NCBI GenBank assembly: GCA_964404395.1
Contig: CAYOKA010000003.1
Coordinates: forward strand, 1 to 42,579
DNA: 42,579 bases
Reading direction: 5' to 3'
Source: an uncultured Oscillospiraceae bacterium
GTDB lineage: Bacteria > Bacillota > Clostridia > Acetivibrionales > DTU013
Position numbers and translations under genes: made by a program. Under the pieces are notes generated by a model that was not told the DNA's origin, did no database searches, and saw only the letters and a list, made by a program, of their open reading frames with translations. Below are positions 7,918 to 36,214 of the stretch, piece after piece; the stretch's first letter is position 1; each line of letters starts with the position of its first letter.

Positions 7918-8263
<346 letters not shown>

Positions 8264-8314
8264 GTCTGCCATGGCTATTATGATTTTATTACGATCTAAT
8301 ATGAATGCAAATAA

Positions 8315-9961
<1,647 letters not shown>

Positions 9962-11722: not shown

Positions 11723-14404
11723 GTGTCCTATTTGAGAAGACAGATTACTTCGGCAGAAGAGGTGCATAACAGCCTGCATAGTGGGGCCCACAGTGGCCTT
11801 AGTGAGAAGGAAGCAAAAAAGAAACTACTTGAACATGGCCCAAACCTCTTGGCTGAAAAAAGGAAAATATCTCCTGTAAAGCTGCTGTTAAACCAGTTTA
11901 CTGATATTATGGTCATAATACTGATGGTTGCAACGGCAATTTCTGCGTTTATGGGTGAAATGACAGAAGCGATTACAATTATTGCGATTGTAGTGCTTAA
12001 CGCCATTCTGGGTTTTGTTCAGGAATTTCGGACGGAAAAAACGATGGAAGCGCTTAAAAGACTGACTGCTCCTGCCGCTAAGGTTATGCGCAGTGGTAGG
12101 CAGGTTAGCATCCCTGCGAAACAGATCGTTCCGGGAGATGTGATTGTACTTGAGGCAGGAGATCGTATAGCAGCTGACGGGGTTGTGCTGGAAAGCACGA
12201 ATATTCAGGTGGATGAGTCTCTTCTTACGGGCGAGTCGGTGCCTGTTGAGAAGTATATAGCATCTGAAAGAATTGAGCAGGGTCACGAGGATAATAAAAA
12301 TAAGGTCTTTATGGGAACCAGTGTAACAAGAGGCAGGGCAAGAGCGCTGGTAACAGCAACGGGAATGAACACCGAAATGGGCAGCATTGCAGGAATGATA
12401 CAAGATATCCAGGAAGAACAGACTCCCCTCCAGAAGAGGCTGTCAAAGCTTGGGAAGATCATTGCAGCAGGATGCTTGATTATATGTGCAATTGTGGCTG
12501 CTGCAGGGATTCTGAGGGGCGAGGAGGTATTTTCAATGCTGCTTTCGGGAATAAGCCTTGCCGTAGCAGCAGTACCTGAGGGACTTCCTGCGCTCGTCAC
12601 AATCTCGTTGGCACTTGGTGTTCAACGTATGCTCAAAAGAAATGTACTTATAAGGAGGCTTCCTGCTGTTGAAACGTTGGGATGTGCAAGTGTAGTTTGC
12701 TCCGACAAGACAGGGACGCTGACACAGAATAAAATGACAGTTAGGAGGATATTTTCCGGGAACAGGTTTGTAGAACTGAAGGATAACGACAGATCCGGTC
12801 ATTTCTTTTTTTCGGGAGGCAGGTCAATTAAACCGCTCAAAGACAGTGTGCTGAGGCTTACACTGGAAATTGCGTCAGTATGCAATAATGCCGGTCTTAT
12901 AAGTGAAAAGCTCAAGCGCAATGAGCAAAAATGGAATTATACCGGGGATCCAACGGAGGGCGCACTGATGGCAGCCTCGGCAAGAGCCGGTCTGACTCCT
13001 GATGTGCTTGCGTCCATGTATTATAGAATAGATGAAATCCCCTTTGACTCAGATAGAAAATGCATGTCTGTAGTGTGCAGCAACAAAAAAAACGCAACCT
13101 TTGTATTTACAAAGGGCGCACCTGATATGCTTTTAAACAAATGTACTGCCGTTTATCAATCAAAGGGCATCACGGTTCTTTCACGGGAATTGAGGACAAA
13201 GATAATAAAAACTAATGATGCAATGGCGCAGCAAGCTTTGAGAGTGATTGCCGTTGCGTATAAGGAGCTTGATTCACTTGCCTATGATAGGGATGGACTG
13301 GAGTCGGGGCTAATATTTGTCGGCCTTATGGGGATGCTTGATCCGCCGCGGCCGGAGACGGCGGAGGCCGTTCTCAGGTGCAGATTGGCGGGCATTAGAC
13401 CTGTAATGATTACGGGGGATCATAGGCTGACGGCAGTTGCTATTGCAAAGGAGCTGGATATATACACAGAAGGGGACAAGGTGCTTACAGGTATCCAGTT
13501 GGATCAAATGGATGAAAAAGGTCTCGAAGAGATAGCACCGGATGTGAGCGTATATGCCAGAGTGTCACCAAAGCACAAGCTGATGATTGTAAAAGCTTTA
13601 AAGCGAGCAGGCAACATTGTTGCCATGACAGGTGATGGTGTTAATGATGCTCCGGCGGTCAAGGAAGCCGATATTGGAATCGCAATGGGACGGTCGGGTA
13701 CCGATGTGACAAGAGAAGCCTCATCAATGGTGCTTCTAGATGACAATTTTGCTACCATTATTGCTGCAATTGAGGAAGGAAGAGTCATCTACAATAATAT
13801 CCGTAAGTTTATCCGATATATGCTGGCATGTAATCTGGGAGAGGTATTGACAATGTTCCTTGGCATGCTTGCAGGGCTTCCGGTCCCGCTACTTCCCATA
13901 CAGATCCTCTGGATTAATCTGGTGACAGATGGCTTGCCTGCCGTGGCACTGGGCTTTGATCCTCCCGAAAAGGATGTAATGAAAAGACCGCCGAGGAAAC
14001 CCGACGAAAACATTTTTTCTCAAGGGCTTGCCGGAACAATCCTGTTTCGTGGTATTCTTATCGGCATTACAACACTGGCCGTATACGTAAGCATACTCTA
14101 TTTCACTGCCGATATCAGCGCAGCCAGAACAAGTGCATTTGTAACTTTGGTGCTAACACAGCTGATTCATGTATTTGAGTGTAAATCTGAGAGGAGAAGT
14201 ATTTTCAGGATTCCTCTCCTAAACAATATCTATCTTGTGTTGGCAGTGATTTGTTCGCTGCTAATGACCCTGGGAGTAGTATACATTCCTGCTCTGCAGA
14301 ATATTTTCAGAACCGTCCCGCTTGGCGTGAACGAATGGCTCATCACAGCAGGCCTGTCATGTCTCGGCCCAGTTTTAGCCAGCTTTAAAGGAACAAAAAA
14401 CTAA
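11723..14404 (+). CDS. cation-transporting P-type ATPase, type IIA (Ca2+-ATPase-like)
   Basis: 893 aa with TGES (LLTGESVPVEK), the phospho-aspartate motif CSDKTGTLT, MITGDH and the hinge TGDGVNDAPAVKEADIGIAMG. Its C-terminal TM block resembles SERCA/PMCA-type pumps such as YloB. Ion specificity is inferred only. TTG 11732 is an alternative start after AAGGGG. Confidence 0.85.
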   Translation: MSYLRRQITSAEEVHNSLHSGAHSGLSEKEAKKKLLEHGPNLLAEKRKISPVKLLLNQFTDIMVIILMVATAISAFMGEMTEAITIIAIVVLNAILGFVQEFRTEKTMEALKRLTAPAAKVMRSGRQVSIPAKQIVPGDVIVLEAGDRIAADGVVLESTNIQVDESLLTGESVPVEKYIASERIEQGHEDNKNKVFMGTSVTRGRARALVTATGMNTEMGSIAGMIQDIQEEQTPLQKRLSKLGKIIAAGCLIICAIVAAAGILRGEEVFSMLLSGISLAVAAVPEGLPALVTISLALGVQRMLKRNVLIRRLPAVETLGCASVVCSDKTGTLTQNKMTVRRIFSGNRFVELKDNDRSGHFFFSGGRSIKPLKDSVLRLTLEIASVCNNAGLISEKLKRNEQKWNYTGDPTEGALMAASARAGLTPDVLASMYYRIDEIPFDSDRKCMSVVCSNKKNATFVFTKGAPDMLLNKCTAVYQSKGITVLSRELRTKIIKTNDAMAQQALRVIAVAYKELDSLAYDRDGLESGLIFVGLMGMLDPPRPETAEAVLRCRLAGIRPVMITGDHRLTAVAIAKELDIYTEGDKVLTGIQLDQMDEKGLEEIAPDVSVYARVSPKHKLMIVKALKRAGNIVAMTGDGVNDAPAVKEADIGIAMGRSGTDVTREASSMVLLDDNFATIIAAIEEGRVIYNNIRKFIRYMLACNLGEVLTMFLGMLAGLPVPLLPIQILWINLVTDGLPAVALGFDPPEKDVMKRPPRKPDENIFSQGLAGTILFRGILIGITTLAVYVSILYFTADISAARTSAFVTLVLTQLIHVFECKSERRSIFRIPLLNNIYLVLAVICSLLMTLGVVYIPALQNIFRTVPLGVNEWLITAGLSCLGPVLASFKGTKN

Positions 14405-14525
14405 AGGCACTTAGCCGCCACGAATAGTAACTTTTGTAATATTGAGTTATTGTTTGAATATTATGCTGGTATGCGGCAATAATACTTATAAATAGAATGA
14501 TTTTGGAGAAATATTCTCAAAAACG

Positions 14526-14553
14526 TTTACAAAATTAATGAAGGTGGTATAAT
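14526..14553 (+). promoter_or_regulatory. promoter of the ATPase/RloB-like cassette
   Basis: TTTACA (14526-14531), a 16-nt spacer, then TATAAT (14548-14553) with an extended -10 TG (14545-14546). The -10 hexamer overlaps the longest-ORF ATG (14552), which argues that the real start is ATG 14585. Confidence 0.55.
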
Positions 14554-14584
14554 GATAGTGGATAATGACTTAGTGGGGTGTACC

Positions 14585-15814
14585 ATGTTATTACAGTTTA
14601 GATTTAAAAATTATAAATCCTTTGCCGATGAAGCAGTACTGGATTTAACTGCTACAAGTATTAGAGAGCATGTTAATAGCTTAATTGAAAAAAACGGAAA
14701 TAAAGTGTTGCCTGTTGCTGCAATTTTTGGTGCAAATGCAAGCGGAAAATCCAACATTTTTTCTGCTTTTTATAGTATGGCAAAAGATGTGCTGTCATCA
14801 TATAAAAAAGATGAAAGTCATTTTATGATTACACCCTATATATTTAGCAAAACCACTGAAAAGGAACCTACTGAATATGAGGTTAGCATTAATATTGATG
14901 ATAAAGAGTATAGATACGGTTTTGTAAGAAATCAATCACAAGTATTTGATGAATGGCTATATACAAAGAAATTTTCTAAAGGTACAAAATCAAAGGAAAA
15001 AATGATTTTTTACAGAAGTAAAAAAGTTACGGTTGGTAAATTAAATCAAGCCGAGAAAAGAGAGTTGGATTATCTTGGTAGCATGATAGATGATAATGAG
15101 TTATTAATGACTGCTATCGGTCGTAGAGAAAAAAGCGAATACAGAAATGTTTACGAATGGTTTTTATTAACATGCTTGAAACAGGATTTTTCTGATGATT
15201 CTGATGAAAAGTTGAGCACAAAATTAATAGCAGAATTTCTATATAAAAGGGAGAAAAATAAAAAGGATGTTGAGGAATTTCTCCGTAAATTTGATAGTTC
15301 AATCATCCGCTTGGAAATTTTACCCGAGAAGGATGCAGACTTAAATGAAAAATATGTTGTGTATAGCTATCATTACGATGATAATGGAACTGAAATTGAA
15401 TTACCTTTCGAGAGTGAATCCAGTGGAACGAAAAAATTGTTTGCATTAGCGGCACTGTTGTTTATTTCTCTTTATAATGGTTTGGTGCTTTGGGTTGATG
15501 AGTTAGATGGAAAATTGCACCCTTTAATTCTTCGCTATATCATAGCATTATACAGCGATAGGCAGGTAAATACGGGCAACGGGCAATTAATTTTTTCCTC
15601 ACACAATTTGGTTTGTCTGAATTCTTCGGACTTACGCCGGGATGAAATCTGGTTTGTTGAAAAAGTTAATCAAGTTTCAACCTTGTATTCTTTGTATGAT
15701 TTTAAGGAAGATGAAGTATCAATTAGATCCGATTTAAGTTTCGGTAAGCATTATTTATCAGGACGATTCGGAGCCATACCATTTCAGGATGAGGAAGATG
15801 CCAATGGGGGATGA
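14585..15814 (+). CDS. AAA_21/ABC-type ATPase (AbiLi / RloA / OLD-N-terminal-like)
   Basis: ORF 14552-15814. N-terminus MLLQFRFKNYKSF, Walker A GANASGKS, signature-like ESSGTKKLFALA, Walker B LWVDELDGKLHP, H-loop FSSHN and a terminal RRDEIWFVEK. This motif set is the one seen in SMC/ABC-like AAA_21 ATPases of OLD-family and abortive-infection systems. GGGG (14574-14577) lies 7 nt before ATG 14585. Confidence 0.8.
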   Translation: MLLQFRFKNYKSFADEAVLDLTATSIREHVNSLIEKNGNKVLPVAAIFGANASGKSNIFSAFYSMAKDVLSSYKKDESHFMITPYIFSKTTEKEPTEYEVSINIDDKEYRYGFVRNQSQVFDEWLYTKKFSKGTKSKEKMIFYRSKKVTVGKLNQAEKRELDYLGSMIDDNELLMTAIGRREKSEYRNVYEWFLLTCLKQDFSDDSDEKLSTKLIAEFLYKREKNKKDVEEFLRKFDSSIIRLEILPEKDADLNEKYVVYSYHYDDNGTEIELPFESESSGTKKLFALAALLFISLYNGLVLWVDELDGKLHPLILRYIIALYSDRQVNTGNGQLIFSSHNLVCLNSSDLRRDEIWFVEKVNQVSTLYSLYDFKEDEVSIRSDLSFGKHYLSGRFGAIPFQDEEDANGG

Positions 15815-16475
15815 TTTATTTAAAAAGAGAGGTAAGGAGCGGCGAAAAAGAGAATCTAAGGAACTGAGAACAAGATCTGAAGCATGGCTTATTGTATGCG
15901 AGGGTAAAGAGACTGAGCCAAATTACTTTAAGAGTTTGTTTAACTATGTTAACTTAAAATCTGATAGAAAAATAAATTATGTCATTAAAGGCGAGGGAAG
16001 AAACACCGAGTCACTGGTATCTTCAGTTGATGACTATTTTTCTTTTGTTGATGATTTAAAACAGAAAAAGAAAATTCCATATGGTAAGGTTTTTGTCGTT
16101 TTTGATATGGATTCCTTTGGAAAGGGACAATTCAATAATGCAATATTCACAGCATCGCGCAGTGGTTATATTCCAATTTGGTCTAACGAATGTTTTGAGC
16201 TATGGTTTTTGCTACATTTCAATTTATTGGAAAGTAACATAACAAGAGAAGAATATTTTTCAAAGCTTAGTGAAATATTTGGGACTAAGTATAAAAAGTC
16301 AGATGACCATTTTGCATTGTTGAATACTGAGGTAAACCTTAAAAATGCAATGCGAAATGCAAAGCAATTATATTGCAAAACAGAGAATATTAAGTCATGT
16401 GCTAATAGAGCCCCTTCTACTACCGTGTTTCAAATGGTAGAAGAAATTGAAGATTATATTGGAAGGAGACTTTGA
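15804..16475 (+). CDS. RloB-like protein (AbiLii-like, putative Toprim-fold effector)
   Basis: ORF 15789-16475 with WLIVCEGKETEPNYF, the acidic motif VFVVFDMD, and IPIWSNECFELWFLLHF, which are RloB-family hallmarks. ATG 15804 lies 8 nt after GAGGA and overlaps the ATPase stop (15812-15814), implying translational coupling. Confidence 0.75.
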   Translation: MGDDLFKKRGKERRKRESKELRTRSEAWLIVCEGKETEPNYFKSLFNYVNLKSDRKINYVIKGEGRNTESLVSSVDDYFSFVDDLKQKKKIPYGKVFVVFDMDSFGKGQFNNAIFTASRSGYIPIWSNECFELWFLLHFNLLESNITREEYFSKLSEIFGTKYKKSDDHFALLNTEVNLKNAMRNAKQLYCKTENIKSCANRAPSTTVFQMVEEIEDYIGRRL

Positions 16476-16502
16476 TAAATATTCTTTTAAAGGTGGCAAG
16501 CT

Positions 16503-16732
16503 GGGTGGACATGGCTGCAAATAGATGCATCATGTGGAGAAATAGCTGCAGGCTGTCTGTACTGTTGAAACTCGAATGCGGTATTAGGATCCACATCCTG
16601 CGGCACGATGCCGCAGGCGCTGGACTTAAGCCACGGACGGCGGTTGTCCTGCGCCCGCAATAGAGTGAGACAGGACACTACCAGCCTGCCTATGACGTAA
16701 CCCGATGCATAACTTTGCAGCCATACTCACCC
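16503..16732 (+). ncRNA. candidate structured RNA (unclassified) 3' of the RloB-like gene
   Basis: GC-rich segment whose 5' and 3' ends form a 22-bp interrupted closing helix: 16503-16507/16728-16732, 16511-16520/16715-16724 and 16525-16531/16704-16710. Internal helices are 16548-16555/16682-16689, a 9-bp hairpin at 16597-16617, and 16618-16625/16646-16653. Both strands read open but neither translation looks like a protein. No terminator separates it from the upstream stop codon. Strand is inferred from operon context. Confidence 0.45.
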
Positions 16733-16754
16733 ATGCCCCTCACTTGAACAGGAA

Positions 16755-16785
16755 AAAAGATTGCTACGCAATCTTTTCACCTTTT
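16755..16785. terminator. bidirectional rho-independent terminator
   Basis: AAAAGATTGC (16755-16764) pairs with GCAATCTTTT (16768-16777), giving a 10-bp perfect stem with a 3-nt loop. It is flanked by an A-run upstream and CACCTTTT downstream. It is the first terminator after the cassette. Confidence 0.65.
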
Positions 16786-16938
16786 GTCTAAAGCATGACT
16801 AACTCATTTTCATTTTTATCTAACTTCTTTGCGCAAAATTTAGTACAGAATATCAGCGAATTACCAAATCTCTAAAAAACAAAAAATAATGTGTTGGTTT
16901 CCATGCTTCATTTTTGCCGTGGGCTTTTCAAATAGTGC

Positions 16939-16967
16939 TTGAAATGCCAAACAAAAAACTATATAAT
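16939..16967 (+). promoter_or_regulatory. promoter, probably of the ABC-transporter operon
   Basis: TTGAAA (16939-16944), a 17-nt spacer, then TATAAT (16962-16967). It is followed immediately by a hairpin (AAAGCCC 16972-16978 pairing with GGGCTTT 16995-17001) and a T-run. Confidence 0.5.
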
Positions 16968-17122
16968 AGGTAAAGCCCGAAAAGTCTCGATTTGGGGCTT
17001 TTTGGTTGCAATGGATTATGAAAGCATTTTTTTACAAATTGTTCACAATTTATTAAAAAGTATATTTCATAATTGTTGTAGCGTTATATGTCGGACTGAC
17101 ATAAATAGCAGGAGGGGAAAAA

Positions 17123-18070
17123 ATGATAGAGATACAGAATTTGACCAAACGATATGGTCAGATAACAGCTGTAAATAATCTTAATTTTACTGTGAAAAAA
17201 GGCGAAGTCCTTGGATTCCTCGGCCCCAACGGAGCGGGCAAAACCACTACGATGAATATCATAACCGGCTATGTTCCGTCCAGTGAAGGTACGGTAAGTG
17301 TAAACGGATATGACATCATGGAATCACCTAAGGAAGTAAAAAAGCTTACAGGTTATCTTCCCGAGCAACCACCGGTATACATGGACATGACGGTTAAGGA
17401 TTACCTGAACTTTGTTGCCGATCTGAAACTGGTAGATAAGAAACTAAAGAAGAGTCAGTTAAGTGACATCATGGAACTTGTTAAAATAGGCGATCATAGG
17501 GACAGGCTTATTATGAATCTTTCAAAGGGGTATAAGCAGAGAGTAGGTCTTGCACAAGCCCTTGTGGGGAACCCGCAGGTTCTTGTATTGGATGAGCCTA
17601 CAGTGGGTCTGGATCCAAAGCAAATCATAGAAATCCGCAAGCTCATCAAAGCTCTTGGCAAGGAGCATACTATTATTCTCAGCTCCCATATCCTTCCTGA
17701 GGTCAGCGCCGTTTGTGAGCGGGTAGTTATTATCAACAAAGGCGAGATAGCGGCAATCGACACTCCTGAAAATCTTTCCAAGGGATACAGTGGCGCCACG
17801 AAATTCCAGGTGACCGTTGTCGGATCGAAGAACTCTGTAGAAAATGCAATCAGAGAGATTTATGGAGTTAAGTATGTAGAGGCAGGAGCAGAAAAAGAGA
17901 GGGACGCCTTTAGCTATATCGTAGAATCAGATAAAGAGATTGATGTCAGGAAGCCTCTATTCTATGCAATGGCCAAGCTGGGCTATCCCATACTTGAATT
18001 GAAGGGTCTTAACTTGAGCCTTGAGGATATATTCCTGCAAATTGTTACCCGGGAAAAGGAGGTTGATTGA
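17123..18070 (+). CDS. ABC transporter ATP-binding protein (ABC-2 / GldA-like)
   Basis: Walker A GPNGAGKTT, signature LSKGYKQRV, Walker B VLVLDEPTVGLD and H-loop SSHIL. Preceded by AGGAGGGG. Confidence 0.92.
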   Translation: MIEIQNLTKRYGQITAVNNLNFTVKKGEVLGFLGPNGAGKTTTMNIITGYVPSSEGTVSVNGYDIMESPKEVKKLTGYLPEQPPVYMDMTVKDYLNFVADLKLVDKKLKKSQLSDIMELVKIGDHRDRLIMNLSKGYKQRVGLAQALVGNPQVLVLDEPTVGLDPKQIIEIRKLIKALGKEHTIILSSHILPEVSAVCERVVIINKGEIAAIDTPENLSKGYSGATKFQVTVVGSKNSVENAIREIYGVKYVEAGAEKERDAFSYIVESDKEIDVRKPLFYAMAKLGYPILELKGLNLSLEDIFLQIVTREKEVD

Positions 18071-35982: not shown

Positions 35983-36059
35983 TTTTCAATTACCCTTTAC
36001 AAGCTGTGAATAATACTGTAATATAGATTTTGGCTGTTTTGCACAGTCACAATTGAATA

Positions 36060-36190
36060 TATCATATACCGCAGACAGCAGGTGCCTAAGGCATAACAGG
36101 CGAAAGCCGGCCCGCCGAGGTTGAATCGATTTATATAGAATCGTAACCCTTGTTGTCTGTAGCATGCAGAAGCAAGGGTTTTTTATGATA
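36060..36190 (+). promoter_or_regulatory. ribosomal protein L10 leader (autoregulatory RNA with attenuator)
   Basis: ACCGCAGACAGCAGGTGCCTAAGGCATAACAGGCGAAAGCCGGCCCGCCGAGG resembles the L10(L12)4-binding mimic found in Firmicutes rplJ leaders. It is followed by a terminator: AACCCTTG (36145-36152) pairs with CAAGGGTT (36173-36180), then TTTTT. It lies directly upstream of rplJ. Confidence 0.7.
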
Positions 36191-36214
36191 TACAAAACGA
36201 GGGAGGTGGAAAAT

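Follow-up and report, generated by a model that had tools for sequence, protein, structure and literature searches.

Two overlapping genes situated among housekeeping genes of an uncultured Clostridia bacterium raise the question of which kind of system they form and how it acts. They lie in the window analysed here, a complete contig of 42.6 kb (42,579 nucleotides, CAYOKA010000003.1) from a metagenome-assembled genome (MAG), which has housekeeping content. The sequence-only reading of this stretch had proposed a pair of an ATPase and an RloB-like protein of the AbiL type, with OLD, Gabija and PARIS as relatives. The pair was found to be an intact and selected AbiL-family two-gene operon, and the family is already catalogued by PADLOC. 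It very probably represents an AbiL-family defence or toxin-antitoxin (TA) module. The favoured explanation as a whole, a functional and horizontally acquired AbiL-family module with a PARIS-like sequester-release-cut mechanism, is considered probable. The two genes are as follows.

14585..15814, + strand: gene 1, abiLi-like, 409-amino acid (aa) ABC-type (Rad50/SMC-like) ATPase, putative sensor/antitoxin (Pfam, PADLOC)
15804..16475, + strand: gene 2, abiLii-like, 223-aa RloB-family protein, putative Toprim-like metal-dependent nuclease effector/toxin (Pfam, PADLOC)

The list of open reading frames (ORFs) and the raw sequence confirmed that both are co-oriented on the + strand at the positions given earlier. 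Gene 1 matched the Pfam families AAA_21 (3.6e-30) and AAA_15 (2.2e-8). Its best PADLOC model was PDLC02335 AbiLi (1.9e-81, 271.7 bits), with AriA as a distant second (3.1e-33, 114 bits). All motifs expected in gene 1 were present in the ORF translation where the sequence-only reading had placed them. In 409-aa numbering these are GANASGKS at 49-56 (Walker A G49-S56, with K55), ESSGTKK at 278-284 (signature, E278-K284), VDELD at 304-308 (Walker B, D305/E306), FSSHN at 337-341 (H-loop, H340) and RRDEIWFVEK at 351-360. Alignment of 61 ATPase homologues revealed that every family-invariant residue is intact in gene 1, including G49, N51, G54, K55, E278, S279, G281, D305, D308 and H340. The AlphaFold2 (AF2) model of the protein had a predicted local distance difference test (pLDDT) score of 87 and gave 71 matches at E <= 1e-3 in a Foldseek search of the PDB, among them Rad50 (3qkt, 7.7e-12), PtuA (8ee4, 7e-10), OLD (6p74, 7.6e-9) and SMC heads. 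Gene 1 is an intact AAA_21/AAA_15 ABC ATPase with a Rad50/SMC-type head in the model. Its tail (residues 375-409) is predicted to be disordered, with a pLDDT of 40-50, and holds eight family-invariant residues, namely K388, Y390, G393, R394, F395, G396, A397 and P399. Since it is conserved yet disordered in the model, this C-terminal peptide K388..P399 may serve as an inter-subunit or partner-docking element.

Gene 2 matched Pfam RloB (6.5e-41) over 194/195 profile positions and PADLOC PDLC02337 AbiLii (3.6e-30), and no other PADLOC model. The motifs expected in this gene were likewise all found, CEGKETEPNYF at 32-42, FDMD at 100-103 and WSNECFELWFLLHF at 126-139 in 223-aa numbering. It possesses the invariant residues E38, D101, D103, W126-S127-N128 and E132, along with E33, which is present in 55/56 RloB homologues. 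On the basis of this conservation, E33, E38, D101, D103 and E132 are candidate catalytic residues. None of the NCBIfam models matched the product of gene 1 or gene 2.

The pair has the features by which AbiL is recognised in the sense of PADLOC and DefenseFinder, an AbiLi match, an AbiLii/RloB match and an adjacent, co-oriented ATPase-then-RloB order. The same arrangement was observed throughout the family. In IMG/VR viral contigs the ATPase gene lies immediately upstream of RloB in 33/33 loci, and in every cellular locus examined (including L007, L008, L009 and L011) it stands directly 5' of the RloB gene on the same strand. The pairing of ATPase and RloB is obligate. The RloB family is large, with 10,741 cluster representatives at 50% identity (E <= 1e-3); the best 150 of these relatives are all stand-alone proteins, 149 of them of 136-272 aa and one of 341 aa. 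A homologous pair which is 70% identical (L008) resides on an integrase/Prim-Pol island beside a resolvase and a type I restriction-modification (R-M) system (hsdR/hsdM/hsdS), while the pair of L009 is located between panD and a deaminase gene. The RloB family is named after the Campylobacter genes rloA/rloB of type I R-M loci. The Campylobacter genes and the L008 homologue sit in such loci, while the window cassette does not.

The AbiL assignment, with OLD, Gabija and PARIS as relatives, agrees with PADLOC and with the literature (PMC11464382, PMC13064643, PMC10440598), in which AbiL is grouped with the systems of ABC ATPase and Toprim (PMC11464382). AbiL of Lactococcus lactis (AbiLi/AbiLii; Deng et al. 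1999, reviewed in PMC13064643) likewise consists of two genes in one operon, the ATPase gene being followed by the RloB-type gene, with the ATPase predicted as Rad50-like and the second protein as Toprim-like, as in the window. PADLOC AbiLi/AbiLii are the best models for both window genes. The lactococcal system is plasmid-borne, whereas the window copy is chromosomal in an uncultured Clostridia MAG. Its sequence is distant; a tblastn search of gene 2 against 72,556 plasmids gave matches of <=44% identity, none from Lactococcus, and lactococcal AbiL itself was not retrieved. The TOPRIM_OLD(D44 = RloB-like):AAA(D29) pair of Clostridium algidicarnis, described by NetFlax (PMC10440598), has the same domain pair and is also from Clostridia, the likeness being one of domains. 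It was validated as a toxin with a neutralising AAA ATPase, with no phage phenotype reported (PMC10440598). PARIS AriA/AriB is likewise a split ABC ATPase and Toprim-type effector, and gene 1 matches PADLOC AriA as given above. The PARIS effector AriB is a DUF4435 protein, while gene 2 matches RloB only, so that the cassette is not PARIS by its effector. The window AbiLi (409 aa) is also smaller than AriA, which has 53-55 kDa (PMC11464382). In OLD and Gabija GajA an ABC ATPase of the AAA_15/AAA_21 type is again combined with a Toprim-type nuclease, but these are single fused polypeptides with OLD-like_TOPRIM (PF20469), in contrast to the two ORFs of the window with RloB as the second. Gabija has in addition a UvrD-like partner, GajB, and the window cassette is without one.

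Analysis of substitution rates revealed ratios of nonsynonymous to synonymous substitution (dN/dS) of 0.09-0.12 for gene 1 and 0.12-0.17 for gene 2. Both genes are under purifying selection. The presence of the cassette among relatives was analysed in a set of 71 loci from species-representative genomes, which were fetched with the upstream P-type ATPase as probe. The P-type ATPase is followed by the same ABC transporter operon without the cassette in 27 loci of related Clostridia MAGs, which bear the labels Oscillospiraceae, Hungateiclostridiaceae, Acetivibrionales and others, so the pair is not a conserved core locus. The loci without it include the closest relatives, L013 with a flanking ATPase 91% identical and L039 with one 87% identical. 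The gap between the P-type ATPase and the ABC operon is 210-460 nt in 21/27 of the cassette-free loci, and 6/27 hold other cargo at the same site. This cargo comprises a conserved protein of ~290 aa (L019, 10088-10972; L021, 10013-10897; L026, 10068-10937), an rve-type transposase fragment (L022, 9887-10561) and VanZ/EamA/TPR genes (L037 and L058, 4645-8076). The ~290-aa protein had no Pfam or NCBIfam match and only an insignificant endonuclease-like one in PADLOC. The L026 site also has a long stretch of tandem repeats with a run of N. Four loci alone have the cassette at this site: the window, L007, L011/L014 and L015, the last being cut at the contig end. Compared with the empty sites, the inserted block of the window extends from the stop codon of the ATPase (14404) to ~16915, and the portion common to all three cassette-bearing lineages spans ~14440-16478. 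The cassette is accessory cargo in a variable intergenic hotspot between the P-type ATPase and the ABC transporter.

The GC content of the cassette is 0.31-0.37, against 0.42-0.52 in the flanks. Its synonymous divergence (dS) between lineages is 0.5-1.3, compared with ~2 (saturated) for the flanking genes. Because cassette dS is lower than that of the flanks, the cassette appears to have moved between lineages more recently than these diverged; the divergence values suggest that it is younger than its flanks and was exchanged between lineages. In L011 (GCA_023435745.1) the RloB gene (8001-8675) has a nonsense mutation (AAA to TAA) which leaves 179 aa, while the ATPase is 90% identical to that of the window. 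This may represent decay of a toxin gene with the antitoxin retained.

Such decay is the pattern expected of a TA pair, and it brings in a first alternative, that the cassette is a selfish type II TA addiction module which plays no part against phages and persists only because cells that lose it die. RloB:AAA pairs act as TA pairs in E. coli, and when a related system with an AAA antitoxin was screened there against phages, it was not protective (both PMC10440598). The overlap of the two genes is an indirect sign of a TA pair. The founding AbiL argues in the other direction, as it gives phage resistance (PMC13064643), and so do the homologues in defence contexts, such as the type I R-M island of L008, and on phage contigs. 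The cassette is also often absent from relatives, and for this reason it does not seem to be effectively addictive at this locus. A pure addiction module is accordingly considered very unlikely.

The mechanism of the favoured module can be outlined by analogy with PARIS. There, the Toprim effector is kept bound by a hexamer of the ATPase; a phage protein sets it free, and tRNA is then cleaved (PMC11464382). By this template, both proteins would be made from one promoter and be translationally coupled. AbiLi would then oligomerise and hold AbiLii inactive, being antitoxin and infection sensor at once. AbiLi would be altered by a trigger of phage origin and by the binding or hydrolysis of ATP, such that AbiLii is released or activated. 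The effector would finally cut nucleic acid at a Toprim-like acidic metal site (E33/E38, D101-x-D103, E132), the target being most probably RNA of the translation apparatus, for example tRNA, and less likely DNA, and the infected cell would be arrested by abortive infection. Three elements are carried over from PARIS, namely how the effector is sequestered and released, what kind of trigger acts and that RNA is the target; an Ocr-type trigger and tRNA-Lys as target are features of PARIS, and for AbiL they could hold by analogy only. Taken separately, the sequester-and-release logic has about an even chance of being correct, while RNA as the target of AbiLii is a tentative proposal that stands somewhat below even.

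Experiments on related systems are in agreement with parts of this outline. Lactococcal AbiL is described as giving phage resistance and as acting after phage transcription (PMC13064643). In E. coli, the RloB-type protein of C. algidicarnis acts as a toxin, which its AAA ATPase partner neutralises (PMC10440598). The sequence-only reading had held that trigger, target and mechanism of the pairing are not worked out. This is in line with a 2026 review, which expressly leaves open whether a PARIS-like mode applies to AbiL, RloAB and similar pairs (PMC13064643), and with the literature to mid-2026, in which no mechanistic study of AbiL was found. The statement needs refinement in so far as the toxicity of an RloB-type protein and its neutralisation by the AAA partner have already been demonstrated in E. 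coli (PMC10440598).

The Toprim-like nature of gene 2 is central to the proposed cutting step. The relationship between RloB and Toprim is asserted in the literature (PMC12065111, PMC10440598, PMC13064643). The AF2 model of gene 2 (pLDDT 80) has a beta-alpha-beta-alpha-beta-alpha-beta core, in which beta1 (27-32) is followed by E33 and beta3 (95-101) ends at D101-M-D103. Its topology was judged from the order of predicted secondary structure along the chain, and was counted as Toprim because a Glu after beta1 and a DxD after beta3 form part of the Toprim definition (PMC12065111). The earlier claim of a Toprim-like gene 2 is supported on these grounds, literature and motif position, and the protein is best called Toprim-like; a Toprim fold was not recovered by Foldseek.

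Several points weigh against the favoured explanation, and this structural result is one of them. Foldseek search of the gene 2 model against the PDB (350,542 chains) gave no match at E <= 1e-3 and no Toprim structure, the best E being 0.015. A search of BFVD gave only another RloB protein, from a phage, and a profile search of PDB sequences with RloB found nothing. In an hhalign comparison with P2 Old, CEGkkTEPNYF was aligned on VEG-KTETN within the OLD-like_TOPRIM domain, an alignment that in itself speaks for the Toprim-like reading. This match is short and weak (probability 4.6%, E 0.0087), covers the EG..TE motif only and comes from a single-sequence comparison, as a homologue search with residues 375-586 of P2 Old gave only 5 proteins. 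Nothing in the cassette sequence points to the trigger or the target. The PARIS template is carried over to AbiL by analogy, and RloB belongs to another family than AriB (DUF4435). AT-rich codon bias, and not recent transfer, may account for part of the low dS of the cassette. The last point concerns the DxD motif of gene 2, where M replaces the usual K.

At this position, residue 102, K is found in 52/56 homologues (FDKD), M (FDMD) in the window and the homologue P0005, and R and Q in others. It might be supposed that K102M, or other changes, disabled the effector and that the cassette is an inactive, decaying relic, and the orthologous L011 gene is indeed cut by a stop codon. This reading is hard to reconcile with the intact state of all invariant residues, the dN/dS of 0.09-0.17, the conserved promoter and the identical protein in 6 samples, and the substitution itself is shared with P0005, with still other residues occurring elsewhere. 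The relic explanation is extremely unlikely.

Alignment of the EG..TE motif of RloB with the Toprim motif of P2 Old bears also on another alternative, an OLD/Gabija-like mode in which AbiLii is not set free to attack RNA but forms with AbiLi a single ATP-regulated nuclease complex, and this would cut DNA of phage or host. OLD and GajA are DNA nucleases (PMC10440598), and the model of the ATPase matches OLD 6p74 as well as PtuA of Septu/retron complexes, which act with DNA nucleases. An action after phage transcription, as reported for lactococcal AbiL (PMC13064643), fits this mode poorly. Two separate genes, the second coding for a toxic component, are a layout more like that of PARIS and of TA pairs (PMC10440598, PMC11464382), and gene 2 is without an OLD-like_TOPRIM match. 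Pfam analysis of gene 2 and 55 homologues gave RloB matches, never DUF4435, and no PF20469, which P2 Old does match (1.2e-17); the stray matches among these 56 family members were weak, DUF4276 in 2/56 (0.01) and Toprim_3 in 2/56 (0.11). A joint DNA-cutting complex is considered unlikely.

A further thought follows from the model of gene 2 being without a significant neighbour in the PDB, with no family member solved. RloB effectors might not be ordinary Toprim nucleases of the OLD/PARIS type, and AbiL would then have a catalytic architecture, target or activation logic other than that of PARIS. This is thinkable and distinctly unlikely. If it were true, the mechanism could be conveniently approached through this cassette, whose promoter/operator is compact and conserved and which has natural variants, FDMD and nonsense, in sister lineages. 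Any tractable AbiL member could help to decide whether all pairs of ABC ATPase and Toprim-like protein work like PARIS.

The borders of the two genes and their expression signals were defined from the sequence and its conservation. The reading frame of gene 1 is open from 14552 to 15814 (420 aa). The start MLLQF at 14585 is where family conservation sets in, with M1, L2 and L3 invariant or nearly so in the 61 homologues, and it is favoured over 14552 because the -10 hexamer (14548-14553) overlaps the ATG at 14552. On this basis the real gene 1 is taken to be 14585-15814, coding for 409 aa. The frame of gene 2 is open from 15789 to 16475, and the 223-aa form starts at 15804. This form is recorded residue for residue on 6 independent public metagenome (Logan) contigs. 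No record matched exactly when gene 2 was looked up at 228 aa and gene 1 at 409 aa, the lengths chosen by gene callers being 223 aa and 418-420 aa, respectively. The overlap of the genes is 11 nt from the 15804 start and 26 nt from the 15789 start, in agreement with the range of 11-26 nt first proposed, and the 11-nt overlap is also kept in L007 and L011. The signals 5' of gene 1 are the following.

14440..14525, + strand: upstream region kept together with the cassette (alignment of the window, L007 and L011)
14526..14553, + strand: sigma-70-type promoter TTTACA-16-TGgTATAAT (11/12 matches plus TG; extended -10 at 14545-14553)

The extended -10 promoter which had been proposed as the cassette's own was well supported. 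Its hexamers are identical in L007 and L011, two diverged syntenic loci. It ties with the promoter of the ABC operon (16939-16967) as the best of the region, both having 11/12 matches, and only the cassette promoter has the extended TG. Conservation among the window, L007 and L011 begins ~85 nt 5' of the -35 hexamer and marks the left edge of the shared unit, while the sequence right after the stop codon of the P-type ATPase is unrelated among the three loci. A perfect 5-bp inverted repeat, GAGAA-ATA-TTCTC, is situated at 14506-14518, 8 nt 5' of the -35 hexamer. Its region is largely conserved in the relatives, the repeat being perfect in L011 and imperfect in L007, and it could be a candidate operator for autoregulation. 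Rfam scans of 14350-17200 by gathering threshold and by E-value gave no match, and no tRNAs were found there either.

The region 3' of gene 2 is also structured. The ~280 nt between the stop codon of gene 2 and the next terminator are GC-rich, with fold z-scores of -8.5 and -9.1, the strongly folding stretch being 16492-16745. Two features were assigned here.

16492..16841 (core ~16502-16738), - strand: ISAs1-family insertion sequence (IS) leader fragment, not part of the system (copies in L084, L085 and L086)
16755..16785, + strand: terminator-like hairpin, first one 3' of gene 2 (10-pair stem, loop of 3, T-rich tail)

The structured element at 16492-16841 had no Rfam match. A metagenome scan revealed three further copies of 85-90% identity in unrelated contexts (L084, 206-535; L085, 3379-3611; L086, 1124-1356). 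In L084 and L085 the element lies ~150 nt 5' of an ISAs1-family transposase gene (NCBIfam transpos_ISAs1, 5.6e-118), and L086 differs from L085 only in the lack of 1137 nt, which contain the greater part of the transposase gene. Across the four copies, 80 base pairs are conserved, and 5 of these show compensatory changes. Between L084 and L085 the element has ~80-85% DNA identity and is more conserved than the transposase genes. From its context and pairing, the ~240-nt element is apparently a structured leader (RNA or DNA) of an ISAs1-type IS which has not been described before. By comparison of the copies, the window and L086 are seen to carry transposase-less remnants, in the window a solo leader fragment, which is truncated on its transposase-proximal side, 27 nt past the stop codon of gene 2. 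The hairpin at 16755-16785, which had been read as the terminator of the cassette, is present and is the first 3' of gene 2, but it lies within the IS fragment, aligns with the L084 copy and does not belong to the cassette.

A structured RNA as third component of the system was considered for this element and rejected. The syntenic cassette of L007 lacks it, and the gaps that follow the pair in other AbiL loci are without structure (z -1.6 to -2.2). In L011 this position is taken by a structured insert of unrelated sequence, and the other copies of the element belong to ISAs1 leaders. The insert of L011 (8672-8990, identical to L014 11810-12128) is GC-rich, lies 3' of the orthologous cassette and has a z-score of -7.6. 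Neither the window element nor any of the other fetched loci resembled it.

The cassette is one more copy of AbiL, a known and very widespread family which standard defence finders already name. For annotation, AbiL can be called clearly in a lineage of uncultured Clostridia, and the start codons, promoter and cassette borders are defined. Its value for biology is modest, as a natural integrase-less defence cassette in one intergenic hotspot of a minority of related species, and the same hotspot carries other cargo and IS remnants in other relatives. What makes the window copy specially informative is limited to its FDMD variant and to the sister copy that has become a pseudogene. Worth retaining are the presence/absence polymorphism of the hotspot, the FDMD and nonsense variants, RloB without a solved structural relative and the unannotated ISAs1 leader.

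The cassette had been described as a solitary copy wedged between housekeeping genes, and its neighbours within ~6 kb bear this out. GroEL, DUF6106, MgtC and the P-type ATPase are located upstream and the ABC-2 transporter operon downstream. PADLOC found no defence gene besides the cassette within this distance, only a generic ABC-ATPase similarity of the transporter ATPase, and there are no R-M genes within ~6 kb on either side. Direct repeats at the borders were tried as target-site duplications and rejected. D1 (14503/16471) and D4 (AACAAAAAACTA at 14392/16950) are not conserved in L007/L011 and were taken as chance; the D4 copy on the right lies within the ancestral promoter of the ABC operon. 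A repeat boundary at ~16555, where six Logan contigs break, was also discarded, as contig L004 reads through it; because L004 has a single-nucleotide polymorphism at 16558, the breaks are likely due to strain polymorphism. Farther along the window, a ribosomal protein L10 leader is situated at 36051-36193, 5' of rplJ (Rfam RF00557, 62.9 bits), an ordinary element which confirms the chromosomal core context.

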